64,000 nt of DNA from Brevundimonas sp. (GCF_031412435.1 NZ_JANODA010000083.1:17220-81219); one strand, 5' to 3'; shown: positions 5,523-25,074, numbered from the stretch's first letter. Notes: generated by a model from the sequence alone, not told the origin. Numbers and translations are program-made.

Positions 5523-5790
5523 GGCGCCGCGCCTGGGCCGCCGCCGGCGCCGCCGTCCGGACGTCCGAGATCTGGGACGCGGCCCAGGCTTCGAGCAGGT
5601 CGCGCGGATAGAAGGGCTTGGCGCGGATGTGCCGGCAGGGCGGCCCACCGCCCCCGGTCGACCAGAGCCGGGCCAGGGTCGCGGGCTTGAGCCGGATGCC
5701 GAACCGCTCCAGATGCGCCGCTGCCTCCGCGCGCGTCAGCAGGATCTCATTCGAAGACGGCGCAGCCGTTGTCTCGGACAACCCGGTCAT
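5515..5790 (-). CDS. Helix-turn-helix DNA-binding protein (excisionase/MerR-like HTH_17 type)
   Basis: MTGLSETT...ILLTRAEAAAHLERFGIRLKPATLARLWSTGGGPP...YPRDLLEAWA. The ATG overlaps the stop of the transglycosylase gene (ATGA at 5787-5790). Confidence 0.6.
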   Translation of the reverse strand: MTGLSETTAAPSSNEILLTRAEAAAHLERFGIRLKPATLARLWSTGGGGPPCRHIRAKPFYPRDLLEAWAASQISDVRTAAPAAAQARRRV

Positions 5791-9796: not shown

Positions 9797-9798
9797 GG

Positions 9799-11223
9799 TC
9801 ACTGGTCCTCTGTCCGGAGGTTGGGAGACAGGACGCCGCTGGCCTCGCCGGCGGGGAGCAGACCGCGGCCGGCGTTGGCGACGAAGAAGGCCTGGAGGGC
9901 GGCCGCTCGCCCTGCCGGTCGCGGCGCCGTCGACGGCCCGCCGGCCGCGGCGCAATGGAAGGCGCGGCGCGCCGCCTCGGCCTCGCGTCCGATCGTCCCC
10001 GGGGACCGGCCGGCCGCGGCGTCGCCGGGACCCGCGGCCGGCGCGCCGTCGCCTCCGGTATGGCCCGAAGACGGACCGGCCTCGGCCGTCGCCGTCTCCG
10101 CCGTCCAGGCGGGCGCCGGCTCGGCGACCCCGGACCCCTGCCCCCCGGAACCCGACCGGCCCAAGGGCGCGGGATTGTCGTTCGACGGGCGCGGCGACGC
10201 GGACCCGGCCGGGCCGGAGCCGGAAGGGCCGGAACCCGGCGACCAGGGTCCCGAAGGCGACGTGGGCGGACGGCCGGATCCCGCCCCCGCCGCGGCCCTG
10301 GCCGGTCCCGCCAACCGGGCGGCCGCCCCGGACACGGCGGCGCCGGCGCCCGCGACCGCACCGGCCGCCAGGGCGCCCGCGCCTGTGACCGCCAGGGTCC
10401 CGGCCAGGGCCGCGCCCGCCCCGAGCGCCGGGCCTCCCGTCACCAGGGCCGAGGCCAGGTTGGGGATGAACAGGGCCAGCATGGCCAGGAGGATGGCGGC
10501 CACCAGGATGCTTAGCGCCTCATAGATGTCCGGGTTGGACGAGGGCTGGAGCTGGTCGAAGATCGTCCGCGCGCCCGAGACCACAATGGCCAGGGCCAGG
10601 ACCTTGAGGCCCGAGGAGACGACGTAGCCGAGGGGTCGTTCGGCCAGGAAGGCGGACTTGTTCCAGATGCCGAAGGGCAGGAGGACGAAGCCGCCCAGGG
10701 TGACGATCTTGAACTCCAGCAGGGTCACGACGATCTGAAGGGCGAGCACAGCGAACGCCAGCATGATGCCGATCATGGCCAGGCCCAGGATCAGGGCGTC
10801 GGTCATGTTGCCGACGACATCGAGCGGGTTGTTCACCGGCGCCGGCGTCTCGCCGAGAGCCTTCACGATCCGCCAGCCCTGGGCCAGGATGGCGCCGGGG
10901 TTGAGGAAGTCGGCCCGGCTCAGCGAGCCGCCGCCCGCCGTCAGTCCGAGTTCGATGAAGCCGGCGTAGATCGTCTCCGACAGGGACTGCCAGTCGTTGA
11001 TCAGCCAGGCGAAGGCGCCGATCAGCAACACCTTGCCGAACCCCGAGGCCAGAACCTCCCGGTTGGGCGACATCGCCCACTGGATGCCGGTCAGGGCGAC
11101 GACCAGGGCGATCAGCAGTCCGAAGACGCCGTTGACCGAGCCCTGCAGGGCGTCGAACCCGGCCGAGATGGTGTTGGAGAACACCACCATCAGCTCGTTG
11201 GGGGTTTCCACTCCGACGGTCAT
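9799..11223 (-). CDS. trbL: TrbL / VirB6 T4SS inner-membrane protein with a Gly/Ala/Pro-rich C-terminal tail
   Basis: Polytopic membrane N-terminal two-thirds, low-complexity tail (AGAGAAVSGAAARLAGPARAAAGAGSGRPP...). The position after trbJ fits. Confidence 0.9.
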   Translation of the reverse strand: MTVGVETPNELMVVFSNTISAGFDALQGSVNGVFGLLIALVVALTGIQWAMSPNREVLASGFGKVLLIGAFAWLINDWQSLSETIYAGFIELGLTAGGGSLSRADFLNPGAILAQGWRIVKALGETPAPVNNPLDVVGNMTDALILGLAMIGIMLAFAVLALQIVVTLLEFKIVTLGGFVLLPFGIWNKSAFLAERPLGYVVSSGLKVLALAIVVSGARTIFDQLQPSSNPDIYEALSILVAAILLAMLALFIPNLASALVTGGPALGAGAALAGTLAVTGAGALAAGAVAGAGAAVSGAAARLAGPARAAAGAGSGRPPTSPSGPWSPGSGPSGSGPAGSASPRPSNDNPAPLGRSGSGGQGSGVAEPAPAWTAETATAEAGPSSGHTGGDGAPAAGPGDAAAGRSPGTIGREAEAARRAFHCAAAGGPSTAPRPAGRAAALQAFFVANAGRGLLPAGEASGVLSPNLRTEDQ

Positions 11224-11234
11224 CGACCCCCTCC

Positions 11235-11981
11235 TCAGTCCCGGGCGTGCGACAGGGGGTCGAAGACGGGCGCGGCCGGCGTCGTCCCGGGCGCCGACCA
11301 GCGCCGGCGACGGGCCTCGTCGCCGGCGGCCCGGTCGGCCGCCTCCCGCGCCGTGGTCTCGGCCAGCAGCCGGGACTGGGCGAGCATGACGGTGCGGAGC
11401 GCGGCCAGGTCCTCGGCCAGGACGGCCAGCATCTGGTTCGACGACTGGATCGCCGCCGTCTGTCCCACGGCGGCCTCGCTCGCGGACAGGGCGCCCGTGA
11501 GCCGGCCGGGGCGTCCCTGACCGAGCCGTTCGAGTTCGGCGGCGGTGCGGGCCACATCCTCGGCCGTTCGCCGGGCGGCGGCGGTGCGCGCCTCGCCCTG
11601 TTCCACGAGCCGCGCCAGGTCCGCGCCGGACAGGTCGTCCGGATAGAGGTCGGCGAACTGCCGTTCCAGGCCTTCGATCGAGGTCGCGAGTCCCCGGGCG
11701 GTGCGGGCCAGCTCGACCATGTCGCGAAGGCTCTGGCTGTTCTGGGTCAGGTGGCTGTAGGGCGATGCGGCCAGGGTCCGGGCCTCGTTGGCCAGGCTCT
11801 CCAGCTGACGGGCCGCCTGCAGCGCGTTCTCGATGTGGTTGCGGGGATCGAACACCACATGCTGGGCCGGCGCCGGCGCGGCGCCGACGAGGCCGGCGGC
11901 GACAAGCCCGGCGGCGAGGACGCGGAACGGTCTATTCGGCCGCGCGCGGCGGGGCGAAGGCGTCGAGGACGGCGTCGACAT
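11235..11981 (-). CDS. trbJ: TrbJ (VirB5-like) T4SS protein
   Basis: Signal peptide, then HVVFDPRNHIENALQAARQLESLANEARTL, the typical TrbJ N-terminus, followed by a coiled-coil-rich region. Confidence 0.85.
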   Translation of the reverse strand: MSTPSSTPSPRRARPNRPFRVLAAGLVAAGLVGAAPAPAQHVVFDPRNHIENALQAARQLESLANEARTLAASPYSHLTQNSQSLRDMVELARTARGLATSIEGLERQFADLYPDDLSGADLARLVEQGEARTAAARRTAEDVARTAAELERLGQGRPGRLTGALSASEAAVGQTAAIQSSNQMLAVLAEDLAALRTVMLAQSRLLAETTAREAADRAAGDEARRRRWSAPGTTPAAPVFDPLSHARD

Positions 11982-14355
11982 GGCGGACTCCCTTGGCTGT
12001 GAGGAACTGGCGCGCGAACCCGGTCTCTCCCGAGCGCGCGAGGATGTCGTCGATGAGGGCCTGGTCCTCCGGCGCGCCGGAGCCGCACAGCGCCAGGGCG
12101 ACCCCGGTCAGCCGGAGGTCGAAGAGCCGGCGCCCCCGGGGCTGTCTCCAGTAGTAGGCGCGCTTCGGCGTGGCGAAGGCGATCAGTTCGAGCTGGCGGC
12201 GGTTCAGCCCGAACCCCTCGTAGAGCCGCGCCGAAGACGGCTCGAGCGCCCGCGGGTTCGGCAGGAAGACCTGGGTCGGACAGCTCTCGATCAGGGTGGA
12301 GGCGATCGGCGAGGCCGCGACGTCGTCCAGGCTCTGGGTGGCGAAGATCACCGCGACACGCTTCTTGCGCAGGGTCTTGAGCCATTCGCGGATCTTCGCG
12401 GCGAAGGCGGTCTCGCCGAGGAAGAGCCAGGCCTCGTCGAGGACCAGCAGGGTCGGCCGCCCGTCGAAGCTGCGCTCGAGGTGATGGAACAGGGCCGAGA
12501 GCACCGGCGCCACGGCGGAGGGCGTCGCCATCAGGCTCTCCAGTTCGAAGGTGTCGAACCGTCCGGGCTCGGGCGTCTCCCCCTCCCCGTCCAGCAGGGC
12601 GCCGTGCGGCCCCTTCAGGGTCAGGGGCTCAAGGGCCGCCGCCACGGCGCGATCCTGCACAAGGGCGCAGAAGACCGTGAGGGTGCGCTGGCTGACGGGC
12701 GCATCGGCGAGCGCGACCAGGGCCGCCCAGATCTCCTCCCGGATCCGAGGCACGGGCTCCAGGCCCGCCAGCCGGACGCTCTCGGCGATCCATTCCGCCG
12801 CCCAGGCCCGCTCGGCCTCCTCGTCGATCCGGGCCAGGGGCTGGAGCGAGACCTTCGCCCCCGGCTCCAGGGCGCGCCACCGTCCGCCCGCCGCCAGGGT
12901 GGCGGCGCGGGCTGAACGGCCCTTGTCGAAGAAGACGACGCGGGCGTCGGGATAGCGGAACCATTGCAGGGCCAGGAAGGACAGGAGGGCGCTCTTGCCC
13001 GAGCCCGTCGGTCCCACGACCATGGCGTGGCCGACGTCGCCGACGTGGAGCACCAGCCGGAACGGCGTCGAGCCCGTGGTCCGGGCCGTGGCCAGCGGCG
13101 GTCCGTCGAGGTTGAGATCCATCGCCGGACCGGCCCAGACCGCCGAGACCGGCAACAGATCGGCCAGGTTCAGGGTCGAGACGAGCGGGCGACGAACGTC
13201 GGCATAGGGCTCGCCCGGAAGGGACCCGAGCCAGGCCTCGACCGCATTGAGATCCTCGATCCGCGCGACGAGGCCCTGGGTGTTGAGCGCCGCCTCGATG
13301 GCGCGGGCCCTGGCCGCGGCCCCGGCCTCGGTGTCGTCCAGGACGCTCACCGTCAGGGTGAGATAGCCGAAGGCGCAGGTCTCGGCGCCGAGGGCCGCCA
13401 GGGCCCCGTCGCATTCCTCGGTCTTGGACGCGGCGTCGGTGTCGAGGAGCGGGACCTCCTCGCGGGTAATGGCTTCGCGCAGCAGGACGCCGACGCCCTT
13501 GCGCTTGGCGAACCAGCGCTTCCTCAGCTTGACGATCTCGCGCTCGGCCTCCGGCTTGTCGAGGCCGATCCAGCGCGCGGTCCAGCGATAGGGGAACGGC
13601 AGGGCGCCCAGGGCGTCGAGGAGCCCGGGCCGCGTCACCGACGGCAGGCCCCGCACGGAGACCACCTTGAGCCAGCGTCCCCCAAGGCGGGGGGCGATGC
13701 CGCCGGACAGGTCGGCGTCCGCCAGCCAGGCGTCCAGGAACATCGGCGGGTCCGGGACAGAGACCGCAAAGGCGCGCGGCGAGACGCAGTCGTGCAGCCA
13801 GGTCACCAGGTCCGCGTCGTCCAGCGCCGCGATCTCGGGCAGGGCGTCCGAGAGGAGATCGAGGGTGGTCGCGGCCTCGCGGACGAAGAGGGCCAGGGCC
13901 TGGCTCCAGTCGGCGCCGTTGCGGGCCAGGCCGTCGAACAGCCAGCGCTCGATCCGGCGGGTCTCGTCGGCCGGCGGCAGCCAGGTGAGGGCCAGGCGGA
14001 AGTTGGTTTCGAAGGCCGGGTCGCCCGCCTCGAAACGGCTGCGGCGCTCCTCGTCCAGAAGCCAGGCGACATCGAGGTCGAAGCCGCTCTCCGGATAGGG
14101 GGCGGCCCCGCGTCGGCGCGCCTCCATGTGCAGGCACCAGCCGGTGCCGAGCCGCTTCAGCGCATTGTTCAGCCGGGCCCGGACCGCCATCAGCTCGTCC
14201 TCGGTCGAGGACTCGAGGTCGGGGCCGCGGAAGCGGAAGCCGGTGGTGAAGGCGCCGTCCTTGTTCAGGATGACCCCCGGGGCGACCAGGGCCGCCCAGG
14301 GCAGGTGATCGGCGAGGGCGGCCGGTCGTCTGCGATGTTCGTCGAGGAAGCGCAT
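11932..14355 (-). CDS. trbE: TrbE / VirB4 T4SS ATPase
   Basis: 807 aa from ATG 14353-14355 (MRFLDEHRRRP...). Walker A VVGPTGSGKS, Walker B LLVLDEAW. Confidence 0.95.
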   Translation of the reverse strand: MRFLDEHRRRPAALADHLPWAALVAPGVILNKDGAFTTGFRFRGPDLESSTEDELMAVRARLNNALKRLGTGWCLHMEARRRGAAPYPESGFDLDVAWLLDEERRSRFEAGDPAFETNFRLALTWLPPADETRRIERWLFDGLARNGADWSQALALFVREAATTLDLLSDALPEIAALDDADLVTWLHDCVSPRAFAVSVPDPPMFLDAWLADADLSGGIAPRLGGRWLKVVSVRGLPSVTRPGLLDALGALPFPYRWTARWIGLDKPEAEREIVKLRKRWFAKRKGVGVLLREAITREEVPLLDTDAASKTEECDGALAALGAETCAFGYLTLTVSVLDDTEAGAAARARAIEAALNTQGLVARIEDLNAVEAWLGSLPGEPYADVRRPLVSTLNLADLLPVSAVWAGPAMDLNLDGPPLATARTTGSTPFRLVLHVGDVGHAMVVGPTGSGKSALLSFLALQWFRYPDARVVFFDKGRSARAATLAAGGRWRALEPGAKVSLQPLARIDEEAERAWAAEWIAESVRLAGLEPVPRIREEIWAALVALADAPVSQRTLTVFCALVQDRAVAAALEPLTLKGPHGALLDGEGETPEPGRFDTFELESLMATPSAVAPVLSALFHHLERSFDGRPTLLVLDEAWLFLGETAFAAKIREWLKTLRKKRVAVIFATQSLDDVAASPIASTLIESCPTQVFLPNPRALEPSSARLYEGFGLNRRQLELIAFATPKRAYYWRQPRGRRLFDLRLTGVALALCGSGAPEDQALIDDILARSGETGFARQFLTAKGVRHVDAVLDAFAPPRAAE

Positions 14356-14362
14356 CCCGGCC

Positions 14363-14644
14363 TCACGCGTCCAGGTGACCCGGCAGGGCGAGGTGGCGGC
14401 GCAGGACATCGAAGAACCGCCGATCGACTTGGGCGGCCCACAGGCCGATGGCGTGGGCCGCCGCCCACCACAGCAGGCCCAGCCACCAGATGCGCAACGC
14501 CAGACCCAGGACCATGGCGATCGTGCCCATGGCGATCGCGTAATCCCTCGGCATCCCGGCCATCAGCACGGGTTCGGCCAGGGCCTGGGCGACGGGAAGA
14601 TCCCAGCCGTCCGGCCGGCCGTCCTGCGTGGACCCGGCCATCAT
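14363..14644 (-). CDS. trbD: TrbD / VirB3 T4SS protein
   Basis: 93 aa from the MMAGST... start, with two hydrophobic segments. The start overlaps the trbC stop. Canonical position between trbC and trbE. Confidence 0.8.
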   Translation of the reverse strand: MMAGSTQDGRPDGWDLPVAQALAEPVLMAGMPRDYAIAMGTIAMVLGLALRIWWLGLLWWAAAHAIGLWAAQVDRRFFDVLRRHLALPGHLDA

Positions 14645-14961
14645 CCGATCTCCGCCCCGCCGGCGAAGCCGAAGAAGTCGAGGAAGAAGGTCGAGGCGGC
14701 GAAGGCGATCGAGAGGCCGAACATGATGCCGAGGCCCCGGCGCATGGACGAGCCGTTCTCGCTCATGGCGATGCCGGCGCCGAAGACGACCACGGCCACC
14801 ACGGCTGCGGCCTGGACCACCGGGCCCGTGATGGATTCGACCACCTGCTGCAGCGGCCCCTCCCACGGCATCCCCGATCCGCCGGCCAGGGCCGGCCCGG
14901 CCATCATCAGGCCGCACGTGGTCATCGCGCCGAAGAGCCGGCGCCCCAGTAACCGTCGCAT
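14641..14961 (-). CDS. trbC: TrbC / VirB2 pilin precursor
   Basis: 106 aa with a long signal sequence ending ...GPALAGG and two TM helices (VVQAAAVVAVVVFGAGIAM; GLGIMFGLSIAFAASTFF). Confidence 0.8.
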   Translation of the reverse strand: MRRLLGRRLFGAMTTCGLMMAGPALAGGSGMPWEGPLQQVVESITGPVVQAAAVVAVVVFGAGIAMSENGSSMRRGLGIMFGLSIAFAASTFFLDFFGFAGGAEIG

Positions 14962-15507
14962 GTCAGGCTTCCTTTGTTTCAGCGCATCTCACCGCGCCTC
15001 AACACATTGCAAGCAAATATATCCACATACTGTCAACACTGTGGATCAAATATTTCTCACAACTCAATAACAACTCAAACCTGAGCTCGTTCAACTCGAA
15101 TCTCGACCCGTGGAGACTTGCTCCGGGACTTGCGGCAACTCTCGGGGAGACTTGTGACGTTCCCGTCGGATTCGCCGATGGGCAGGGGTTTGCGCCCCGT
15201 GGGAAGCCCGCGGGGTTTGACGGGAGGGTGGCGCCTGACTTTCGGAGCGGGGCGACGGCCACATTTCTGGCTGTCGCGGCGACCTGGCGCACGCGAGCGG
15301 CGCGCCCCTCCGACGGCGCGGTCATGATGAGGAAGCCGGTTTGGCGCTCTCGTATCGGGGCCAACACCGGTCCCGAAAACGGGCCAACCCTATGACGCCG
15401 TCGTCAGGTCGACGGAAGGCGGGCCTGGTCCTCGAATCCCTTTCGCTGGCGTTGAGGCGCGCTTCAGGCCTGATGCGGCGTGTCGAAGCCGGGCTGTCCC
15501 GGGCGTA

Positions 15508-16731
15508 TCAGCGGCCGTGCGCCAAAGGCGTGAGCGCCAGCAAGCGCTCGACTTCGGCTTCCACCGCGTCCGAGACCGGCAGGTGCGCGCGCTCGCGTCC
15601 CCAGACCTCTCGAAACCGTTGCACCGCCTCCGTGGCGGCATCGCGCGCCAGGGAGTCCGGTATACCGGCGCGGGCGGCCATGTAGACGAGCTCATCCATC
15701 GTAAACTCGGCCATTCGTTTCGTGCGGGCGTACTTCAGCGCCATGCTGTCGTCGGGGATGTAGACCGTGGTCGACAGGAAGTCGTAGCCGGGCGACAGCT
15801 GAGGCGTTCGCCCGTCCGGATAGATGAGCGACCAGTTCTTCAGATGCATGTCGGCATTGCCGATCAGGGTGTTGAAGACCAGCCGCCGGATGAGTTCGCG
15901 CACGCCGGTTTCGCCGGTCTCCAGCCACAGCACCTTGGCGAGGTAGCGGTAAGACCCCTTGTCGTACTTCTCCCCGGGATAGACGCCGAAGACCTGGGCG
16001 AAATCCTCGACATGGATCAGGCCGCCGTCCTGCCGACGATCGAACCGCCGGATCGCGAAGGCCTCTTCCTCGATCTTCCCGATGCCGTCCGGCAGACCTT
16101 CGATCTGATCGAGAGGGACGAGCTCCACATCCGGGATGTCCATGCCCATCGCGCTTGCCAGCCTCATCATCGAGAATTCATTGGCGGCCACGCCGCGATA
16201 GAGGGCGGAAGGCAGTTTGATGATCCAGTCCCCGCCTCGTCCGCTGCCCGGGATGGTCAGGCCGCCGTGGGCCTTCTCCAGGGCTGAAAACTTGAGCTGG
16301 ACGCCCGCCAGTGAGAAGCGAAGGGGACCGTCGCGCGCCGCGCCGTCGCCGGCCGGTTCGGGATCTTCACCCTCATCCGCTCGCGCCTCGCCGAACGGCC
16401 GCACCGTGACGGCTCCAGGAAGGTCCGGCCCCAGCACTTCGAGCAGGGGATATTCGCGCATCGGTTTGATGCCGGCCCGCTTGGCCAGATAGTCGCGCAG
16501 CACGCCCTCGGGCAGCAGGTTGGAAAAGAAGGGGATCAATCGCGTCTGGGTCGGACGATGGTCGCGAAGAAGGCCGCCCTGTTCGCCCTTGAACGACAGG
16601 CTGAGGGTCGGACGATCTTGATCCTCCGCATAGTCGTCATCGAAAGAGAAGATCGACTGATCACCGCCCAGGGCGTTGATCACCCCGACCCTGCGGTCAT
16701 TGAGGAAGACTTCCAGCGCATCTGCGGTCAT
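15508..16731 (-). CDS. hipA: HipA-family Ser/Thr kinase toxin (type II TA)
   Basis: HipA N-terminal couple domain (EVFLNDRRVGVI...LPEG) and kinase core with LIGNADMHLKNWSL (catalytic loop) and PGYDFLST (Mg-binding DF). Confidence 0.85.
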   Translation of the reverse strand: MTADALEVFLNDRRVGVINALGGDQSIFSFDDDYAEDQDRPTLSLSFKGEQGGLLRDHRPTQTRLIPFFSNLLPEGVLRDYLAKRAGIKPMREYPLLEVLGPDLPGAVTVRPFGEARADEGEDPEPAGDGAARDGPLRFSLAGVQLKFSALEKAHGGLTIPGSGRGGDWIIKLPSALYRGVAANEFSMMRLASAMGMDIPDVELVPLDQIEGLPDGIGKIEEEAFAIRRFDRRQDGGLIHVEDFAQVFGVYPGEKYDKGSYRYLAKVLWLETGETGVRELIRRLVFNTLIGNADMHLKNWSLIYPDGRTPQLSPGYDFLSTTVYIPDDSMALKYARTKRMAEFTMDELVYMAARAGIPDSLARDAATEAVQRFREVWGRERAHLPVSDAVEAEVERLLALTPLAHGR

Positions 16732-16733
16732 CG

Positions 16734-17354
16734 CTAGTCCTCGTCATCCAGGCTGTAGGCGGGACGTTCCGCGTGCGGGCGATGCAGGAGGCTGTTGCGG
16801 AGGGCTTTCAGCCAGACGGCGGCGTCGCGATAGGCCTGGGCGTGGCGGGGTCGCTCGGCGAGCGGATAGGTCAGGATGCCCTGAAGGTTGACCCTGAGGC
16901 GTTCCAGGTCGGCGAGGAGGTTGGGTCCCCGCAAAGCGGTCGCCAGCGGCTCCAGATCCCGAAGGCTGGTTGCGATCGAGGCAAGGTCCTCTCGTTCCGG
17001 AAATATCGCCCGGGCCTCTTCCGCCAGGCGGCGGAGCGTCGTCAGAAGCGTCCTGAGCGTTCGTTCCTCCGAACGTTCCTCGGCGGAACGAACGGCGGCC
17101 TCGACCGCCACGAGCGCCGACCGGGGGACGAGTTGGAGATCGAGATCAAGCGAGCGCGCCAACTGGAGCATGGTCGAGAGTTGGGGATCCGCTTCACCGT
17201 TCTCGATGCGAGAAATCTGGGCCTGGGTCAGGTTGGCGCGCGCGCTGAGGTCCCGTTGGCTCCAGCCTTTGGCGACACGCGCTTGCCGGACGATGTCCGT
17301 AAGCGGTTCAAGTCCATACTTTTTCGATATCTTGTTCTGCATCATTTTCGCCAT
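16734..17354 (-). CDS. XRE-family HTH protein, HipB-like antitoxin candidate with a ~130-aa C-terminal extension
   Basis: ...ARVAKGWSQRDLSARANLTQAQISRIENGEADPQLSTMLQLARSL is a Cro/C1 HTH. The stop is 2 nt from the hipA start. Confidence 0.7.
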   Translation of the reverse strand: MAKMMQNKISKKYGLEPLTDIVRQARVAKGWSQRDLSARANLTQAQISRIENGEADPQLSTMLQLARSLDLDLQLVPRSALVAVEAAVRSAEERSEERTLRTLLTTLRRLAEEARAIFPEREDLASIATSLRDLEPLATALRGPNLLADLERLRVNLQGILTYPLAERPRHAQAYRDAAVWLKALRNSLLHRPHAERPAYSLDDED

Positions 17355-17586
17355 TCTGATGCAGAGTTATATATCAGCTCCTAACAGGCGTCGAGACGCT
17401 GACACATAGAAATATATCACGCCTGGATCTTGATGTTCCATAAAATATCGGGCGTCCGCACTCCTGTTAAGCAGTTCTCACTCCCGAGCCTCAACCCCGC
17501 TCACATTCGCAGCATCATAGGGAACCAGACGAGCGGTTTCGTTTGTCCATGATGCACCAGATTATTCCTGACGGGGGGTCCCAGGC

Positions 17587-18543
17587 CTACGCCAACGCGC
17601 TGATCGCATAGGCGTCGTCGCCAGATGGCTCGATGCCGAGCACGGCCTCCACGGCCCGCCCCGTCGCCGTCCGCCGGATGTGCACGATCCGGTCGACGGC
17701 CTGGGCGATGGCGCGGCGCGGCGTGCGCGTCGACACCTCGGCGATCAGGTCCTCGACGCGGCGCAGCACATCGTCCGCCGAGTTCGCATGGATCGTCGAA
17801 AGCCCGCCGGGATGGCCGGTGTTCCAGCTCTTCAGCGTCTCGAGCGCGGCGGCGCCGTCCCTCATCTCCCCGACCACGATCCGGTCCGGACGCATCCGGA
17901 GAGCGTCACGAACCAGGTCCACAACGCCGATCGCCACCGGCTGGCGCCGGGTCAGGACAGAGACGACATCCCAGGCCGAACATTGCAACTCGGGCGTATC
18001 CTCCACCAGGAAGACCCGGTCCCCGGCGAAGGCGGGCTCGGCCAGCACCGCATTGGCCAGGGTCGTCTTGCCCGAACCCGTCCCGCCCGAAATCAGGATG
18101 TTGAGCCGGTCCACGGCGGCGGTTCGAAGCGCATCGGCCTGGCCTTCGGTCATCATCGCGCCGAGCACATAATCGTCCAGGGTCCAGATCACGGCGGGTC
18201 GCTTTCGGATCGAGAAGGCGGGCGCGGAAGTCACCGGGGGCAACAGGCCCTGGAACCGTTCGCCCGTGCCTGGAAGAACGCCCGAGAGCCGCGGGTCGTC
18301 CCGGGTCACCGTCTCCCCGACATAGTCGGCGATCAGCCGGACCACCCGTTCCCGCGCCTCGGCAGAGAGGGTAACCCCCGTATCCCGACGCCCCTCGCCG
18401 CTCCGGTCCAGGACCAGACGGCCGTCGGGGTTGGCGAGGATCTCGACCACCTCCGGCTCGACCAGAGCGGCCAGCACCGTGTCGCCGAGCGCGTGGCGCA
18501 GGGCCTCCAGCTTGCGGCTGGCGATGATGGGATGGGCGGCCAT
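17587..18543 (-). CDS. trbB: TrbB / VirB11-type conjugative-transfer ATPase
   Basis: Walker A ISGGTGSGKTT and a VirB11/PulE-type core (VGEMRDGAALETLKSWNTGHPGGLSTIHAN). Confidence 0.9.
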   Translation of the reverse strand: MAAHPIIASRKLEALRHALGDTVLAALVEPEVVEILANPDGRLVLDRSGEGRRDTGVTLSAEARERVVRLIADYVGETVTRDDPRLSGVLPGTGERFQGLLPPVTSAPAFSIRKRPAVIWTLDDYVLGAMMTEGQADALRTAAVDRLNILISGGTGSGKTTLANAVLAEPAFAGDRVFLVEDTPELQCSAWDVVSVLTRRQPVAIGVVDLVRDALRMRPDRIVVGEMRDGAAALETLKSWNTGHPGGLSTIHANSADDVLRRVEDLIAEVSTRTPRRAIAQAVDRIVHIRRTATGRAVEAVLGIEPSGDDAYAISALA

Positions 18544-18986
18544 CAGCCGGCCGGGTCGAACGACCGGACTTCGGGTGCGACCTCTCCAGGCCGGTCCTTT
18601 CGGCCCGCCACGATCCGCGCCGCGGTGGCGTCGAGGAGATGCTCGATCCGCCGGTCGACCGCCGCCTGGACCGTGGGGTCCTGGTCGACCAGGGCGTCCG
18701 GAAGCCGGAGGAAGAAGGCGTGCGCCACCTCGATCAGCAGCTCCTGAACGATCTGCATGTCCCGGGCCGTAGACTTCATATGCCCGCGCAGCGCCTGTTC
18801 CAGGGTCAGCAGCCGATCGTCCGGATCAGCCTGCGGGCGCTTCTGCAGGCCCCGGGCGATCGCCCGGCCGGCCGCCTGGCTCAGCGGCATCCTGCCGCTC
18901 TTGGCCTCCCGGTTCAGGCCCGCCAGCACCTTGGGGTCGTTGAGATAGACCTGGACCCGGGAGGTCCCTGCGTCACGTCTGGCCAT
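18543..18986 (-). CDS. Ribbon-helix-helix (CopG-like) protein between traG and trbB
   Basis: N-terminus SRVQVYLNDPKVLAGLNREAKSGRMPLSQAAGRAIARGL resembles an RHH fold. Overlaps the traG stop and the trbB start. Confidence 0.6.
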   Translation of the reverse strand: MARRDAGTSRVQVYLNDPKVLAGLNREAKSGRMPLSQAAGRAIARGLQKRPQADPDDRLLTLEQALRGHMKSTARDMQIVQELLIEVAHAFFLRLPDALVDQDPTVQAAVDRRIEHLLDATAARIVAGRKDRPGEVAPEVRSFDPAG

Positions 18987-20853
18987 CGCCCAGTCCTTTC
19001 AGATGATCGAGCGCCGCGTCCTGTGCGGCCATTTCCTGCGCCACCCGCCCGTAGATGTCGGCCACCCGCGCCGCCATCTTCCGGTCGTCCATCGCCGCCG
19101 CCACCTCCTTGAACAGGGGCAGGCCGGCTTTCGGGTCCTCGCCGAGACCGCGGCGTCCGGTCCAGGGATGCTGTGACGACGGCGGCCCATCCAGCCTCGC
19201 GGCCTGGTCGGGCGCCCTGTCCCGCGCCCGGGTGCGAAAGGGCTCGCGCCGGTCGTAGAGAAGTTTCCGTGTCCTCAGGGGGCGGACGCCGGCGGCGAAG
19301 ATCAGCTGGTCGTCGTCGGGAAGCGCCCGCACCTCGCCCGGTTCCAGCAGGGGGCGCTCGATCTGGGAGCGGGAGACCGAACTGCGTCCGGCCGCCAGCC
19401 CGGCCGGGCTGCTGCGGCTCGTCCGCGTCTCCAGGATCGAGCCGGTCAGCTTTGACACCTTGTCTTGGGTCAGGGGATCGAGGGCCGAGAAGGCGGTGTA
19501 GACCGCGCAGTTGTCGAGGATGGTGTTGTTGGCCCCATAGGTCTCGACGATATCGTTCAGCGACTGGGCGACGAACATCACCTTGACCCCGTAGCCGCTC
19601 AGGAGCCGCAAGGACTTCTCGAAGAAGCTGACCCGCCCCAGCAGGGGAAACTCGTCCATCAGCATCAGCAGCTTGTGCCGTTTGGTCCGGCCGTCCGACG
19701 CCTCGGTCTCCCGCACGGTGAGCGACTGGGCGGCGGCGTAGAAGAACAACCGCACGAGCGGACGCAGGGCCGCCGCGTCCGCCGGCGCCACCTGGACATA
19801 GAGGGACAGGGGGACGGGCGCGCACATGAGGTCGCCCATGGAGAAGTCGGACCGCGACAGGCAGCGCTCGACGTCCTCGCCGGCCAGCCATTTGAGGTAG
19901 GACCGCGCCGTCCCCTGGACCGAGGTGCGGAAGCGGTCGTGCATCGCCGCATAGCCCTTGACCGCCGTGGCGATGAACGGGTGGGTCTCCGGCCGGCCCC
20001 CGGCGCCCGGGCGGTGCAGGGCCCGGGCCATGACGTCCGCTGCGTCGTCGAGGTCGGCCAGCAGGCCGCGCACGGTCAACAGGGTCTTGTCGGCGTCCTC
20101 GGCCGTGTACAGCACATGCAGGATCACGGCCTCCAGGATCTCGGTTGCCGCCTTGTCCCAGATCGCCTCGTCGTCCCGGGCGCCCCCGGGGTCCGACAGG
20201 ATGGCGACCAGGCGCTGGACGTGGGCCAGTTCACCCGGCCCGGGCAGGATCTCGGCCAGCGGATTCCAGCAGGCCGACGCCGGATCGCGCGGATCGAAAT
20301 AGAGGGCATGACTGAACCGGCATCGCCAGCCCGCGCTGAGACGCCAGAGCTCGCGTTTCGGATCGTGCACGAGGACGCTTGCGGGCCAGGACAGGAGCGT
20401 CGGCATGACGTGGCCGCGTCCCTTGCCGGACCGCGTTCCGCCGGTGACGAGCGACGGACGCAGGTCGGTCGTCGCCAGGATCCGCCGGCCCATGACACCC
20501 AGGATGCAACCCGCCCTCGCCGTCAGGCCGGCCTTGCGGGCCTCGTCCGGACCGCCCCAGCCCCTGACACGGCGGATCGTCGTCCCGCCTTCGGCCATCA
20601 CCCCCAGGCCGAGGCCGCCCGCCCCGCCCAGCAGAACCCACAGTCCGGACCGCGACAGCGCCTCGCCGGCCTCGTCCGCGAAAGCGGTCTTCCAATGCAG
20701 GATCGACCAGGGCCAGTAGACGACGAGATCGCCTCCCCAGGACGCGCCCGGCCCGAGCGCCGCGTCGAACGCATAGGTCCAGGCAAAGGCCTGGGTGGCC
20801 GCCTGAAGGCCGACGAGGAGACCGAAGGCCAGTCCGGTCAACCGCCCGATCAT
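18973..20853 (-). CDS. traG: TraG / VirD4 type IV coupling protein
   Basis: 626 aa. N-terminal TM helices, Walker A TGGTRSGKGRG, Walker B-like LLMLMDEFP. Confidence 0.9.
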   Translation of the reverse strand: MIGRLTGLAFGLLVGLQAATQAFAWTYAFDAALGPGASWGGDLVVYWPWSILHWKTAFADEAGEALSRSGLWVLLGGAGGLGLGVMAEGGTTIRRVRGWGGPDEARKAGLTARAGCILGVMGRRILATTDLRPSLVTGGTRSGKGRGHVMPTLLSWPASVLVHDPKRELWRLSAGWRCRFSHALYFDPRDPASACWNPLAEILPGPGELAHVQRLVAILSDPGGARDDEAIWDKAATEILEAVILHVLYTAEDADKTLLTVRGLLADLDDAADVMARALHRPGAGGRPETHPFIATAVKGYAAMHDRFRTSVQGTARSYLKWLAGEDVERCLSRSDFSMGDLMCAPVPLSLYVQVAPADAAALRPLVRLFFYAAAQSLTVRETEASDGRTKRHKLLMLMDEFPLLGRVSFFEKSLRLLSGYGVKVMFVAQSLNDIVETYGANNTILDNCAVYTAFSALDPLTQDKVSKLTGSILETRTSRSSPAGLAAGRSSVSRSQIERPLLEPGEVRALPDDDQLIFAAGVRPLRTRKLLYDRREPFRTRARDRAPDQAARLDGPPSSQHPWTGRRGLGEDPKAGLPLFKEVAAAMDDRKMAARVADIYGRVAQEMAAQDAALDHLKGLGDGQT

Positions 20854-20854
20854 C

Positions 20855-21478
20855 TCAGTCCACCCCAGGCATGGCGCCCCGCTCCGCCTCGGCTTCGAGG
20901 ATCAGCAGGGGTGCGGCTTCGATGCGGCGCTGGTGATAGGCGACGAGCGCCTCGACCAGATCCGAGGCCGGGTCCGCGAACAGGCTGACGAGGGCGTCCT
21001 CTTCGCGATCGAGATCGCGGAACAGTCGTCGCTCGGCCGACGACAGCTGCACCAGCTGCCGACAGACCCGCTGGTAGGCGTCGACCAGGGCGGCGCTGCC
21101 GGTGCTCTTGACCGCCCGGAGAAGGTTGGCCGCCAGGTCCCGGTCCGGGTGATCCGACCCGTTCAGCCCCTGCTCGCGCCCCTGCGTCCGGCCTGCGCCG
21201 CTCAGACTGTTCAGGACGCACTGCAGCCGGAACGCGAACCGGTCCTTCACCGTCGCTGTGTCCAGGCGCGGCGCGAGAAAGCCGCCGGTCGGCGCGCGTT
21301 CGATGAGCCCGTAGCCGCAGAGCCAGACCAGGGCTTCGCGCACCGGGGTCGTGGAAATGTTCAGCCGCCGCGCCTCATCGAGGATGACCACCGGACGGCC
21401 GGGCGTGTACAGGCCCTGCTCGGCGCGGGACCGAAGGCTCTCCAGGGCCGTGGCGAAGGGGTCGCGTCTGCGGGTCAC
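20855..21478 (-). CDS. GntR-like winged-HTH regulator, immediately upstream of traG
   Basis: GTG 21476-21478 preceded by GGGAGAG. ...ILDEARRLNISTTPVREALVWLCGYGLIER resembles a GntR wHTH, with a helical C-terminal domain. The stop is 2 nt from the traG ATG. Confidence 0.6.
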   Translation of the reverse strand: MTRRRDPFATALESLRSRAEQGLYTPGRPVVILDEARRLNISTTPVREALVWLCGYGLIERAPTGGFLAPRLDTATVKDRFAFRLQCVLNSLSGAGRTQGREQGLNGSDHPDRDLAANLLRAVKSTGSAALVDAYQRVCRQLVQLSSAERRLFRDLDREEDALVSLFADPASDLVEALVAYHQRRIEAAPLLILEAEAERGAMPGVD

Positions 21479-21708
21479 TCTACTCTCCCACCTGAAAACC
21501 ACCTTTTGGCGAAAGTGAGCCTCCGCGCCAAAGGCTGGAGCGGATTTTGGCCGCGCCGCGCCGGAAAATGTCGCCGGCGGCGACACGAACCGCGTCAAGA
21601 CGCACCAGATTCTGTCGCAAGTTCGAGTTTTCCACCTGCATCCGGGGGTTGAGATGTTGATCGCGCGACGCGGTCGCACCACAACCGGACTCGGAAAGGT
21701 CGCGGTGG

Positions 21709-22194
21709 ATGGCAGGCGTAGCGGCGGAGCAGATGCGTGACGGCGAGTTGCTCTCGGCGGCCTTGAAGTCAGTGCGGACGTCCCGCGGCCTGTCGACCCG
21801 CCAGGTCGCCGACGGGATGAACATGTCGGTGCGCACCTATCAACGGTTTGAGGCCGGGGCGACCCGGCTGAACCTGGATCACATCCACCGCTTCGCCCGG
21901 GCCACCTCCAGCGATCCCTATGGAATCCTCATGGCCGTGATGATCGGCTCGCCGGGGTTCGCACGGGCGGTCGCCGACAATATGCTGGCCACGGTCCTGA
22001 TCGTGGGGGTGCAGAATCTCGAGCAGTCGGTCGGCGACCGCATCGCCGACCTCGACACCCGCTCCCTCGTCGGCGCCGTGGCCGGGCTGTTCGACGATCT
22101 CGCTGAAAGGGTCCGCAGCGCTGATCCCGCCGAGGACTGGCTGGCCAGGGGCCGGGAGGCGCTGACGGCCAGGCGACCGAAGCCGGGCCGCTGA
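21709..22194 (+). CDS. XRE-family HTH transcriptional regulator
   Basis: ...SRGLSTRQVADGMNMSVRTYQRFEAGATRLNLDHIHRFARAT is a Cro/C1 HTH. Divergent from the GntR-traG operon and directly upstream of the lasso precursor. Confidence 0.75.
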   Translation: MAGVAAEQMRDGELLSAALKSVRTSRGLSTRQVADGMNMSVRTYQRFEAGATRLNLDHIHRFARATSSDPYGILMAVMIGSPGFARAVADNMLATVLIVGVQNLEQSVGDRIADLDTRSLVGAVAGLFDDLAERVRSADPAEDWLARGREALTARRPKPGR

Positions 22195-22290
22195 GGTGCG
22201 GAATATACTCCAGATATAGCTTTGATGCCGGCCGGTCCTGGCGCTCACTCCGGTCGCCACACCCCGTGGCGACCCACCAAGGAGAGAGTG

Positions 22291-22413
22291 ATGACTACGG
22301 CCAAACTCCGCCTCGTCCGTTTCGGCAGCGCCCGGGCGCTGACGCGCGACATGCTGACCGGCGCCTATATCGAGCGCGAGGTCAACGACAGCTTCCTGCC
22401 GCCCGTCGGCTGA
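22291..22413 (+). CDS. Lasso-peptide precursor candidate (A gene), 40 aa: MTTAKLRLVRFGSARALTRDMLTGAYIEREVNDSFLPPVG
   Basis: ATG preceded by AAGGAGAG (22279-22286). Small ORF immediately upstream of the B and C genes. Two Thr-x dipeptides are each followed 9 residues later by an acidic residue. Not resolved in the ORF track, which shows a longer 63-aa version. Confidence 0.65.
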   Translation: MTTAKLRLVRFGSARALTRDMLTGAYIEREVNDSFLPPVG

Positions 22414-22420
22414 AGGCTAG

Positions 22421-22448
22421 GCGGGCGACCGCCCAGGCGGTCGCCCGC
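22421..22448 (+). promoter_or_regulatory. Perfect 12-bp stem / 4-nt loop hairpin 8 nt after the precursor stop (possible attenuator between A and B)
   Basis: gcgggcgaccgc-ccag-gcggtcgcccgc, read directly. No T-run follows, so it is not a classic intrinsic terminator. Confidence 0.6.
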
Positions 22449-22608
22449 ACCCGCCTGCAGGATCGCAGGCCGTCCGACCGGAGCTCGCCATGCGCCGTCC
22501 CCTCCTTCTTCCCTCCCGATCGCGGTGCGGCCTGACGCACCGTCGCCGTGCGCCACGTGCGCACGCCTGGGGCATCCGGCCCTGCGACCGCCGGCCGTCG
22601 ACAGGCCG

Positions 22609-23283
22609 ATGACACCGGCCGCGCCCCTGACCCCCGCCCCGGCGGCCCCGCCTCTGTGGTGCGCGCCGGGCGTCCATCTGGCCGAAGTCGACGAGGACAT
22701 CATCGTCCTCGATCTCAAGGCGGACGCCTACGACTGCCTCATGGGCGGCGCGGGAAGCATCCGCCTGATCGAAGGCGGCGGCCTGGAGGTCTCCGATCCC
22801 GAGGTCCGCGAAGCCCTGGCCGCCGCCGGCATAGCGACGCCCACGCCTCACCGGACGCCCCGCCCGCGCCTCATGGCGCCCGCCCGGGAATTGCCGAGAA
22901 CCGGTTCCGTCTCAGGGCTCGGGACGCTTCAGGCCGTCACCGCCCTGGTCATCGCCACACTGGGCTTCCGCGGGCAGTCGCTCGAGGCCCTGATCGCCGT
23001 CGACGCCCCGGGCCCCGCCTCCACGCCCCTCGACGAGACGGAACTCGACCGCCTCGTCTGCGCGGTTCGCAGCGCCCGCCCCTTCGTCCCCTTCCAAGGG
23101 GAGTGTCTGCAGCGATCCTTCGAGCTCCGGCGGTTGCTCGCCGCCCGGGGGATCGCCTCCGACTGGATCTTCGGCGTCCGGACCTGGCCTTTCGCCGCCC
23201 ATTGCTGGATCCAGATCGGCGACCTCGTCATCGGCGACAGGCTGGAGCGGGTCCGGTTCTTCACCCCCATCCTGGCGGCCTGA
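22609..23283 (+). CDS. Lasso-peptide B protein: fused PqqD-like RRE and transglutaminase-like Cys protease
   Basis: N-terminus ...GVHLAEVDEDIIVLDLKADAYDCL is PqqD/RRE-like. C-terminus has FQGECLQRS (Cys), FAAHCWIQIGD (His) and ...D. The start is uncertain: ATG 22609 or GTG 22525. Confidence 0.85.
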   Translation: MTPAAPLTPAPAAPPLWCAPGVHLAEVDEDIIVLDLKADAYDCLMGGAGSIRLIEGGGLEVSDPEVREALAAAGIATPTPHRTPRPRLMAPARELPRTGSVSGLGTLQAVTALVIATLGFRGQSLEALIAVDAPGPASTPLDETELDRLVCAVRSARPFVPFQGECLQRSFELRRLLAARGIASDWIFGVRTWPFAAHCWIQIGDLVIGDRLERVRFFTPILAA

Positions 23284-23286
23284 CCC

Positions 23287-25074
23287 GTGGGCGACTTTCT
23301 CATCGTTCACCCTGCCCGCGGCGATGCGGCCGCAAGCCGACGCGCCGAAGACCTCGCGGACGAGGCGCGAACGCACGGCTGGCGGATCGAGCCGCTCAAG
23401 GCCCGGACCTGGCTCGGCGCCCGGGGCCCCACACCGCCGAGACCCCTGGTCGTGGGGCCCTGGACCCTGATCGGCGACGTCTTCGACCGCCGCTCGCCGG
23501 TTCTTCCCGTCACGGCGCCGGGCGATCCCTGGGCCTATGAGCGCAAGATGATGGCCCGCTTCTGGGGCCGCTACGTCGGCGTCACCTTTGCGTCGGACGG
23601 TCAGATCTCGGGCCTGTTGCGCGATCCGTCCGGGGCGCTGGAATGCGTCACCTGGGCGCAGGACGGTCTGACCCTGGTCGCGTCCGCCGCAGAGGACTGG
23701 CTCATCCGGCGCCTGCGCCCGCCCTGGCGCATCAATGTCGAGCGCCTGGCCTCGGCCCTGCGCGACCCGGTTCCGGCCACCGGCCCCCTGCTGCTGGACG
23801 GGCCGATCGCGCTCGAACCCGGGACGGTCCAGCCCTTGCTCCCGTCGCGGCCGGCGGACATCCTCTGGCGGCCGACGGCGTTCGCCCGACGCAGTCTCGA
23901 ACGACCGCCGACGATCGACCGGGCCGCGCGCAGTCTGCGTGACGCCATCGACGAGGCCGTGACCGGCCTGGCCTCCCTCCCCGGCCCTCTGGCCGCGGAG
24001 GTCTCGGGCGGGCTCGATTCCAGTCTCGTCGCCGCCAGTCTCGCGCGTGGCGGAGCCGGGAGCGTCCGCCTCTGGATCAATGCCCACGGCCCGACCCCCG
24101 AGGCCGACGAGAGAACCTATGTTCAGGCGCTCGCCGATGCGCTCGGGTTCGCACCCGACTTCATCCCGCATCCCACAGGGCCGCTCACCCCCGCAGGCTT
24201 GCAGGAGTCCTCACAGGGGTTCCGCCCGGGCCTGGCCGCGCTCGACCGCGCCCACGATCTCGCCTGGGCCGCAAGGATCGGCGCCGTCGGGGCGACCGCC
24301 GTCTTCACCGGCAAGGGCGGAGACTCGATCCTGCTTCAGCGGGCCACCCCGGACGTCTTCGCCGACCTGTGGAAGGCGCGGGGCTGGAGAGCGCTGCTGC
24401 ACACCGACGTGCTTGAACTGGCGGCGGCCAACGAGACCTCTGTCTGGTCCATGGTCGCCGCCGCCCGGCGTCACCTGCGCCGCGGGACCGTCTGGCCCGT
24501 CCGTGACCATCCCCTCCTGACCCCCATCGACAGCCCTTCGACGGTCCATCCCTGGCTGGAAGACTGCGAAGCCTTCGGTCCGGGCAAGGCGCTCCAGATC
24601 GCCGGGGTGGCCGACAGCGTGTCGCGTCACGGCCCGTCCATGCTCACAAAGACCATCGACATCCGCCATCCCCTCTGCGCCCAGCCGGTGATCGAGACCT
24701 GCCTCGCCCTCCCCACCTCCGTTTTGACAACAGGCGGGCGGGACCGGGGTCTGGCGCGGATCGCGTTCCGCGATCGGCTTCCCCGCCAGATCCTCGATCG
24801 CCGGTCGAAGGGCGACATGACGAGCATCTATGGCCGGATGATCCTCGACAATCTGCCGGTCCTCCGATCCTGGCTGCTCGACGGCCGGCTCGCCGCCCTG
24901 GGGGTGATCGACAGGACCGTGGCCGAGGAACACCTCACCCACGAGACCCTCCTGTGGCAGGGCCGGTATTCCACCCTCTTCGTGGCGGCGGCCTACGAAG
25001 GCTGGATCCGCGCCTGGGAGGACCGGCTCGGCCCGGCCGCCCGGCGCCTGCCGGCGGGTCGAACCCCGCCGTGA
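23287..25074 (+). CDS. Lasso-peptide cyclase (C protein, asparagine-synthetase B homologue)
   Basis: 595 aa. PP-loop EVSGGLDSSLVAAS (24004-24021). The size and its position 3 nt after the B stop are typical of McjC-type cyclases. Confidence 0.9.
   Translation: MGDFLIVHPARGDAAASRRAEDLADEARTHGWRIEPLKARTWLGARGPTPPRPLVVGPWTLIGDVFDRRSPVLPVTAPGDPWAYERKMMARFWGRYVGVTFASDGQISGLLRDPSGALECVTWAQDGLTLVASAAEDWLIRRLRPPWRINVERLASALRDPVPATGPLLLDGPIALEPGTVQPLLPSRPADILWRPTAFARRSLERPPTIDRAARSLRDAIDEAVTGLASLPGPLAAEVSGGLDSSLVAASLARGGAGSVRLWINAHGPTPEADERTYVQALADALGFAPDFIPHPTGPLTPAGLQESSQGFRPGLAALDRAHDLAWAARIGAVGATAVFTGKGGDSILLQRATPDVFADLWKARGWRALLHTDVLELAAANETSVWSMVAAARRHLRRGTVWPVRDHPLLTPIDSPSTVHPWLEDCEAFGPGKALQIAGVADSVSRHGPSMLTKTIDIRHPLCAQPVIETCLALPTSVLTTGGRDRGLARIAFRDRLPRQILDRRSKGDMTSIYGRMILDNLPVLRSWLLDGRLAALGVIDRTVAEEHLTHETLLWQGRYSTLFVAAAYEGWIRAWEDRLGPAARRLPAGRTPP

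Follow-up and report, generated by a model that had tools for sequence, protein, structure and literature searches.

The 64,000-nucleotide stretch of Brevundimonas sp. DNA analyzed here (GCF_031412435.1 NZ_JANODA010000083.1:17220-81219; this whole stretch is called the window, and positions are counted from its first letter) contains, at 22,195 to 25,074, what is quite likely a functional lasso-peptide operon (class II) that belongs to the brevunsin family, and from which an ancestral module encoding an S9 peptidase, a TonB-dependent receptor, FecR and an extracytoplasmic function (ECF) sigma factor has been lost. The original prediction, made from the sequence of the window, had described a lasso-peptide cluster consisting of A, B and C genes only, and our analysis bears this out: a gene for a 40-aa precursor, preceded by a strong Shine–Dalgarno sequence, is followed by genes for a B2 protease and for an Asn-synthetase-like C protein with an SGGLDS PP-loop. 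The neighbors that it named, an XRE regulator, the GntR-traG genes and a DUF1543/FAD protein pair, were found as described by domain scans, and the lack of an exporter or an isopeptidase, which it had noted for the neighborhood, holds for the whole 64 kb in Pfam, NCBIfam and tblastn searches.

Probable loss of the isopeptidase–receptor–FecR–sigma module

The genes of the operon and its regulator form a rightward row, XRE-A-B-C, which is divergent from a leftward GntR-traG-trbB operon (coordinates are given in Table 1). We scanned essentially all open reading frames (ORFs) of the window that were longer than 150 aa and had a coding-like composition with Pfam and NCBIfam models, and found no ATP-binding cassette (ABC) transporter, STN-domain TonB receptor, FecR or ECF sigma factor in the 64 kb. 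Likewise, tblastn queries with a relative's isopeptidase, receptor and FecR had no match there. Two alpha/beta hydrolases with weak Peptidase_S9 matches (36283-37668 and 55085-56185) were rejected as isopeptidase candidates, one being a polyhydroxybutyrate (PHB) depolymerase and the other an unrelated hydrolase. Two TonB receptors (39849-42167 and 60287-62950) were rejected as lasso receptors, as they have no STN domain and lie in sugar-utilization surroundings.

In contrast to the window, its sister loci, which were found by exact-protein look-ups of family precursors, carry the module. In these loci one strand carries TrbB, a gene of 147 aa, TraG and the GntR-like gene, and the other carries XRE, one or two precursors, B and C; after C, and convergent with it, come genes for an S9 peptidase (~820 aa), a TonB-dependent receptor with an STN domain (~980 aa), FecR and an ECF sigma factor. 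Locus L020, on the Brevundimonas diminuta chromosome CP035093.1, has exactly this layout, including the S9-receptor-FecR-sigma module, and the ORF sizes in the loci of two Brevundimonas metagenome-assembled genomes are consistent with it. Isopeptidase-containing lasso clusters have a near-constant architecture, in which GntR precedes the precursor, and the isopeptidase is followed by a TonB-dependent transporter and a sigma/anti-sigma pair (PMC9266682). The order of genes in the sister loci agrees with this architecture, indicating that the relatives have the canonical astexin-type layout. For the S9 proteins of the relatives, NF033523 ('Atxe2 family lasso peptide isopeptidase') was the best or second-best NCBIfam model. 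The presumed isopeptidases of L005 (12678-15146), L020 (12650-15115) and L004 (11336-13816) have about 820 aa, as compared with the 638 positions of the AtxE2 model, which matched their C-terminal hydrolase domain; they may represent a distinct subfamily.

The homology of the window to module-bearing relatives stops at 25021-25037, within the last codons of C. Its closest relatives, the metagenomic loci L015 (92% nucleotide identity, 98% for the precursor) and L030 (91%), are also without the module, and they are the only ones with which the window has a 3' flank in common: blastn homology past the stop codon of C ends at 25179 (L015) or 25168 (L030), which leaves about 95-105 bp common to the three. 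Beyond this breakpoint (~25168-25180), the window, L015 and L030 run into three unrelated gene sets. A search for a deletion scar was negative, as the local alignment of 25075-25500 with the isopeptidase-to-sigma regions of three relatives was no better than that of shuffled sequences. The pair of DUF1543 and FAD-NAD(P)-binding protein genes (25461-27636) adjoins no related lasso locus, and stands in place of the module in the window genome only.

In a neighbor-joining tree of C proteins, those of the window and L015 were nested in lineages that carry the module, as does the outgroup, L004. Hence, a single loss in the ancestor shared by the window, L015 and L030 is the parsimonious explanation. 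The C protein of the window is 93% identical to that of L015, 55-69% identical to those of module-bearing relatives, and 58% identical to that of the B. diminuta locus. In a survey, metagenome contigs were searched with an alignment of nine C proteins. It yielded 80 loci, each of which was scored by tblastn, and which fell into a brevunsin type (C at least 47% identical) and a distant type (C 32-40% identical). Among loci with at least 3 kb of downstream sequence, the S9 peptidase, which served as the marker of the module, was present after C in 37/38 of the brevunsin type and in 14/16 of the distant type. The A-B-C-only state of the window is most parsimoniously read as a secondary loss of a module of about 7.7 kb (isopeptidase, TonB receptor, FecR and sigma), and not as the primary design that the word 'minimal' in the original prediction suggested. 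A-B-C-only lasso clusters are, besides, a category already recognized (PMC9266682). The window resembles them in having no exporter, isopeptidase or tailoring enzyme, but differs in that its state appears to be derived, with enzymes and a GntR regulator of the isopeptidase clade and a loss that can be traced on the tree.

Further unrelated A-B-C-only loci were seen in the survey, namely L083 (JAESFP010000026.1), L102 (RCUH01000158.1) and perhaps L086, which indicates that such losses recur. L083 and L102 represent one of each cluster type, and in both of them C is directly followed by ordinary-looking chromosomal genes, namely an MTAP-like gene in L083, and genes for a member of the major facilitator superfamily (MFS), a glycoside hydrolase and a TonB receptor in L102.

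The frames of XRE, A, B and C are all intact at a synonymous divergence (dS) of about 0.2 from L015, and A, B and C are still under purifying selection and not decaying: relative to L015, the ratio of nonsynonymous to synonymous divergence (dN/dS) amounts to 0.20 (A), 0.32 (B) and 0.19 (C). For the XRE gene, which is present upstream of A in all relatives, it is 0.14. As the remaining genes are under purifying selection, production and release of the peptide probably continue. Three members of the clade, with about 8-10% nucleotide divergence between them, keep intact A, B and C of the same length, and the catalytic residues as well as Asp1 and Glu9 of the core are retained. These findings, like the dN/dS values of 0.19-0.32, make it unlikely that the A-B-C trio is a decaying remnant, left when a deletion took its partners and perhaps the rest of the element, with genes that are unexpressed or useless and simply not yet disabled. 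What would fit such a remnant is that the partner module is gone without a scar, that B is the least constrained of the three genes, that two IS6-family transposase genes lie downstream, and that a relaxase, a second att copy and a complete tRNA were not found in the window, as if the element were truncated; the independent A-B-C-only loci L083 and L102, which abut ordinary chromosomal-looking genes, would fit it as well.

Still less probable, in our view, is that the cluster is functionally complete, with another lasso cluster or conjugative element of the same genome providing the isopeptidase, the TonB receptor and the FecR-sigma pair in trans. Lasso isopeptidases are reportedly specific to the peptide from their own cluster (PMC9266682), and no such genes lie in the 64-kb window, even though Brevundimonas genomes can hold more than one cluster type, the distant one being found with a full module beside a VirB-type secretion system in L004, and even though it is 64 kb of the genome that is visible.

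The precursor, its predicted product and the biosynthetic enzymes

As a query, the window precursor alone found near-identical sequences only. A family profile built from it, the precursors of three related genome loci and the published brevunsin sequence found 49 protein clusters. The motif LTRD is present in 56/56 of the pooled precursors: the residue after LTR is always Asp, and the residue eight positions further is always Glu. Position 2 of the core, in contrast, is variable (G, M, L, T, N or Q). The pattern of the family, a leader M.T.KLRLV.FGSA..LTR followed by a core of about 21 aa with Asp1 and Glu9, fits the window precursor. Its leader has the form KLRLVrFGSArALTR, with Thr18 at position -2, where lasso leaders usually have Thr, if the core starts with Asp20. 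In the core of the window precursor, DMLTGAYIEREVNDSFLPPVG, Glu9 is the sole acidic residue among ring positions 7-9. The predicted product is this core minus H2O, with an Asp1-Glu9 ring and a mass of 2304.11 Da.

The profile search assigned to the same family P0014, a B. diminuta protein annotated only as hypothetical, which is encoded by L020 and has the C-terminus DGMGEEFIEGLVRDSLYPPAG. We take P0014 to be the brevunsin precursor. Brevunsin was made from a B. diminuta cluster, according to PMC7549694, and a table in the review PMC12427821 gives it as the 21-mer GDMGEEVIEGLVRDSLYPPAG, ending with ...GLVRDSLYPPAG. The length of 21 residues listed there places the cleavage site before Asp20. 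When the two sequences are compared, GDMGEEVIEGLVRDSLYPPAG of the PMC12427821 table and the genomic TR followed by DGMGEEFIEGLVRDSLYPPAG, the first two letters of the core are swapped and V stands for F (GDMGEEV... in the table, DGMGEEF... in P0014), which may reflect a strain difference together with a transposed letter pair, or an error in the table. Compared directly, the window precursor and P0014 are identical in 9/21 positions of the core and 15/19 positions of the leader. The exact peptide of the window is undescribed, and in this respect the original prediction of an undescribed product stands; judged by these identities, it is yet a clear member of the brevunsin family.

Other rings were considered within the same precursor. 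A seven-membered Gly24-Glu30 ring was excluded, as E30 is replaced by Lys in P0002, which is 85% identical, and a nine-membered Ala25-Asp33 ring is unlikely, as Asp33 is Asn in much of the family. Both would belong to a shorter lasso with a core that starts after Asp20, either AYIEREVNDSFLPPVG with an Ala1-Asp9 ring (Thr23 at -2) or GAYIERE... with a Gly1-Glu7 ring, and Ala1 or seven-membered rings do occur in proteobacterial lasso peptides such as the xanthomonins. Despite this precedent, to which caulonodin VI can be added (table in PMC12427821), and despite a second 'LT' directly before Gly24 in the subfamily of the window (DMLTG), the invariance of Asp20 and Glu28 in all 56 precursors and the agreement of the listed brevunsin length with a start at Asp20 make a later core very improbable.

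The B protein most likely starts with the ATG at 22609 and not with the GTG at 22525, and the same gene is called on an identical public contig. B matched PF13471 (Transglut_core3; 9.6e-24, 84 bits, cut-off 26) and NF033537 ('lasso peptide biosynthesis B2 protein'; 1e-20, 74 bits, cut-off 33), and its Cys166, His198 and Asp210 were invariant in an alignment of 48 homologues. The spacing of these residues, 32 from Cys to His and 12 from His to Asp, is one that we take to be equal to that of McjB. Of the fused PqqD-like/transglutaminase-like protease that had been proposed originally, the protease with its Cys-His-Asp residues was confirmed, but the PqqD-like half was not. The AlphaFold2 model of B had a mean confidence (pLDDT) of 93, and that of its N-terminal part (residues 1-92) of 89.6. 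When the N-terminal model was used in a fold search of the PDB, the top three matches were to TbiB1, a protein that binds lasso leaders, but they were weak (E 0.08-0.24, probability 0.90-0.99, TM 0.30-0.34). The fold search with whole B gave nothing at E of 0.001 or lower, the best matches being a putative cysteine protease, 3isr (0.099), and TbiB1, and the sequence of B and the profile of its N-terminal part had no meaningful matches among PDB sequences. By its model, the conserved N-terminal domain is possibly a recognition element for the precursor peptide (RRE).

The C protein matched PF00733 (Asn_synthase) with an E-value of 1.3e-22 and 81 bits (cut-off 21). We assign it as the lasso cyclase on the basis of its domain, its context and its homologues rather than of a curated model. 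In the comparison of B and C with lasso models that the original prediction had suggested, B thus exceeded the cut-off of the B2 model and C that of PF00733, while C remained below the cut-offs of the models named for cyclases.

A and B are separated by a 195-bp spacer, in which a perfect GC-rich hairpin follows the stop codon of A. The fold of 22405-22470 had an energy of -42.6 kcal/mol (z = -4.2), and none of 200 shuffled sequences was as stable. The hairpin was not called in a terminator scan, and there is no T-run after its stem. It is probably an attenuator that sets the ratio of A to BC, with the precursor mRNA in excess over that of B and C; a comparable hairpin was mentioned for astexin-1 (PMC7549694). 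A promoter and terminator consensus scan of 21.6-25.5 kb was empty, the consensus being uninformative for a high-G+C organism. Several relatives have tandem precursor pairs with different cores and one B-C pair (L002 8733-9227, L025 10001-10341, L027 10001-10348). The window has a single precursor, and its hairpin-bearing spacer lies where a second precursor would sit; three-frame translation of this spacer revealed no degenerate second precursor.

In the mechanism that we propose, the conserved leader would be bound by the N-terminal domain of B, and the Cys-His-Asp protease domain of B would cut between Arg19 and Asp20. C would then adenylate the side chain of Glu9 via its PP-loop and join Glu9 to the alpha-amine of Asp1, giving a nine-residue ring threaded by the 12-residue tail REVNDSFLPPVG. 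By analogy with Leu16 and Tyr17 of the B. diminuta core, Phe16 and Leu17 may act as plugs. The hairpin would attenuate read-through into B and C. With the loss of the ancestral convergent genes for the S9 peptidase (the presumed isopeptidase), STN receptor, FecR and ECF sigma factor, variable DNA would have come to abut the 3' end of C. The peptide would probably still be made and leave the cell without a dedicated exporter, whereas the half of the system that serves uptake, sensing and recycling would be gone. Export without an exporter is plausible: according to the table in PMC7549694, brevunsin made in a heterologous host could be obtained from the culture medium. The host used for brevunsin was Sphingomonas subterranea. 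For the isopeptidase module itself, a siderophore-like or a concentration-control role was proposed (PMC9266682).

Several observations weigh against a working brevunsin-family operon with a lost module. The loss of partner genes could mean that the operon is on its way out, and B, as mentioned, is the least constrained gene. The absence of the module is judged on 64 kb of the genome, and a module acting in trans may lie beyond. No experimental product is known for the locus. The start of the core at Asp1 rests on family conservation and on the length given in the review table, the sequence of which deviates from the genomic one. The best NCBIfam models for C are macrolactam or lasso cyclases, but the scores are far below the cut-offs (84 vs. 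300 bits and 50 vs. 525 bits), and C had no sequence match in the PDB. As to the leader-binding RRE of B, the fold search gives a hint of it, with no match at E of 0.001 or lower, and PF05402 (PqqD) matched 0/48 members of the B family at E of 1 or lower. Finally, the label of isopeptidase for the S9 proteins of the relatives rests on their position and on a weak AtxE2 match (29-91 bits, cut-off 400), which covers the hydrolase domain only.

Among known systems, the window locus is close to the brevunsin cluster of B. diminuta (Kodani et al. 2018, J Ind Microbiol Biotechnol 45:983, cited in PMC7549694 and PMC12427821; here the P0014 locus). They have in common a 40-aa precursor with Asp1, Glu9 and a C-terminal ...DS..PP.G, the same families of B and C (the window B is 47-49% identical to B-type proteins of B. 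diminuta), and the position by TrbB, TraG, GntR-like and XRE genes on an integrated conjugative element. They differ in the convergent S9 peptidase, STN-TonB receptor, FecR and ECF sigma genes, which the window does not have, and in 6/7 internal ring positions. Astexin-type clusters comprise AtxA-B-C-E with a TonB-dependent transporter, a FecR/FecI-like pair and GntR (Maksimov & Link 2013, as summarized in PMC9266682). The window shares with them the GntR-like gene upstream of the precursor, the fused B, the C cyclase and the lack of an ABC exporter, and its C is nested among those of module-bearing clusters; however, it is without the isopeptidase, receptor and regulators, and the S9 proteins of its relatives, with their ~820 aa, match AtxE2 weakly. 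With clusters of the microcin J25 and capistruin A-B-C-D type, which have a McjD-like ABC exporter, the window shares the biosynthetic logic, but it has no exporter or immunity gene and belongs to a different clade.

Linkage to conjugation genes

The integrase, the mating-pair-formation type IV secretion system (T4SS) and the coupling protein found in the window identify a Trb/TraG-type integrated conjugative element. The original prediction considered it unusual for a lasso cluster to travel as cargo of such an element, but a position adjacent to TraG turned out to be normal. Among survey loci with at least 7.5 kb of upstream sequence, T4SS genes were present upstream in 29/31 of the brevunsin type and 6/10 of the distant type, and the B. 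diminuta P0014 locus is placed in the same way. In both types together, a T4SS or coupling-protein operon lay directly beside the lasso module in about 85% of the 41 informative loci. Carriage beside conjugation genes is the norm for these lasso clusters. We found no discussion of this link in the searchable open literature.

The GntR-like gene belongs to both sides of this arrangement. It had been assigned originally to the conjugative element, and it is indeed operonic with traG, its stop codon lying 1 nt from the traG start. On the other hand, a GntR regulator upstream of the precursor is also a constant feature of isopeptidase-type lasso clusters (PMC9266682). An orthologue was found at the same position in all brevunsin-type loci, and orthologues scored better than the window protein. 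The true start of the window gene is probably near 21478, which would give a protein of about 207 aa, as in the relatives.

The distant type, in which the neighboring system is VirB-like, was represented by L004 (1-18000, from the chromosome of B. sanguinis NCCP 15609) and by the metagenome loci L090, L097, L102, L105, L107 and L110. L004 has an S9 peptidase, an STN-TonB receptor and FecR of its own and adjoins a VirB-type T4SS (VirB3, VirB4, VirB6, VirB8 and SLT). Its regulators are swapped relative to the window, with XRE heading the T4SS side and GntR the lasso side.

The lasso and transfer operons diverge from one short control region in two T4SS lineages that are unrelated, namely the Trb/TraG lineage of the brevunsin type and the VirB lineage of the L004 type. 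The control region is flanked by GntR-like and XRE regulators, each heading one operon, with their roles swapped between the types. It is conceivable, though we would give it little credence at present, that the lasso module is part of the control circuit of the element itself, and that the peptide is a secreted, element-encoded signal of donor or recipient density that gates transfer. The STN-domain TonB receptor, FecR and ECF sigma factor would then act as a cell-surface signaling chain, and signal turnover could be the task of the isopeptidase. The lineage of the window would be a 'signal-only' variant, still emitting the peptide but having lost the means to sense or degrade it. If true, this would provide a testable function for isopeptidase-type lasso peptides.

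Taken by itself, the window locus adds one more predicted brevunsin-like lasso peptide. As a cluster of the isopeptidase clade that persists under purifying selection without isopeptidase, receptor and regulators, it is also a natural experiment on the use of those genes to the producer. The linkage to conjugation genes explains the spread of these clusters and suggests studying the role of isopeptidase-type lasso peptides through conjugation. The family-wide coupling of lasso and T4SS operons via a shared GntR/XRE control region is a more interesting lead than the single locus.

Other features of the element and of the window

Table 1. Coordinates of the lasso operon, its surroundings and the conjugative element in the window
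Feature	Position	Strand	Basis or remark
Left element end	724..2478		tRNA 3' fragment with CCA (minus, ~724-770); tRNA terminator hairpin ~690-715; tyrosine integrase 913-2478 (+; PF13356, PF00589)
Trb-type T4SS operon (SLT, TraF-like S26 peptidase, TrbI, TrbG, TrbL, TrbJ, TrbE, TrbC, TrbB)	5787..18543	-	Pfam/NCBIfam
TraG/VirD4 coupling protein	18973..20853	-	PF02534 2.5e-78; NF010450 (IncP-type TraG) 1.3e-114, 384 bits, model cut-off 674
GntR-like regulator, first gene of GntR-traG-trbB operon	20855..21682	-	weak PF00392 match, 7.8e-05
XRE-family regulator	21709..22194	+	PF13560 and PF01381; heads XRE-A-B-C row
Shine–Dalgarno sequence of A (AAGGAG)	22279..22284	+	read from sequence; 6 nt before ATG
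Precursor gene A, 40 aa, MTTAKLRLVRFGSARALTRDMLTGAYIEREVNDSFLPPVG	22291..22413	+	member of 56-sequence precursor family
Leader, codons 1-19, MTTAKLRLVRFGSARALTR	22291-22347	+	family leader motif
Predicted core, codons 20-40, DMLTGAYIEREVNDSFLPPVG	22348-22410	+	family conservation
Perfect 12-bp GC-rich hairpin just 3' of A stop codon	22421..22448	+	second hairpin 22453-22470
B protein, 224 aa	22609..23283	+	N-terminal beta-rich domain (~residues 15-75) fused to B2 transglutaminase-like cysteine protease
C protein, 595 aa, Asn-synthetase-like ATP-dependent macrolactam synthetase	23287..25074	+	PF00733; SGGLDS PP-loop
3' flank common only to window, L015 and L030	25075..25180	+	small hairpin 25140-25154
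DUF1543 protein	25461-25964		downstream neighbor of C
FAD protein (PRK09897-like FAD-NAD(P)-binding)	25975-27636		downstream of DUF1543

The tRNA fragment directly left of the integrase represents one att junction. A second att copy was not found in the window with the 27-nt core and up to 3 mismatches, nor was a complete tRNA, and an Rfam scan of the window at gathering thresholds was empty. The Pfam and NCBIfam scans detected no relaxase domain among the large ORFs of the window; the element may continue past the end of the window, or it may be truncated. TrbC was assigned to the 106-aa ORF 14641-14961 on the grounds of its position and because the corresponding 106-aa gene of relatives is annotated with PF04956.

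Between trbC/D and trbB there is an insertion with genes for a HipA kinase toxin (15508-16731) and a helix-turn-helix (HTH) partner (16734-17354). Relatives have other small cargo at this spot, e.g., Ros/MucR and HTH genes in L015, so that the trbC/D-trbB gap looks like a second variable-cargo hot spot of the element. Between the integrase and the T4SS genes lies a gene for an AbiEii nucleotidyltransferase toxin (3816-4739), and the unannotated 293-aa ORF before it (2942-3823) could encode its AbiEi partner.

The DNA to the right of 25.2 kb matched the fetched loci solely through an IS6-family transposase gene, and contains sugar-utilization and exopolysaccharide genes as well as insertion-sequence transposases. 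Two IS6/IS240-family transposase genes in opposite orientation, 34220-34912 (-) and 56425-56964 (+), bracket about 21 kb with genes for glycoside hydrolases, a TonB receptor, a beta-lactamase-fold protein, an MFS sugar transporter and a PHB depolymerase. This segment may be a composite transposon, or its ends may mark a rearrangement boundary. The region 28331-34096 encodes a UDP-N-acetylglucosamine (UDP-GlcNAc) 2-epimerase, a family-2 glycosyltransferase with a C-terminal MshEN domain (NfrB-like), an NfrA-like outer-membrane protein with tetratricopeptide repeats (TPR) and a DUF4434-like protein, and by this gene content looks like an Nfr-type exopolysaccharide secretion set, perhaps controlled by cyclic di-GMP (c-di-GMP).

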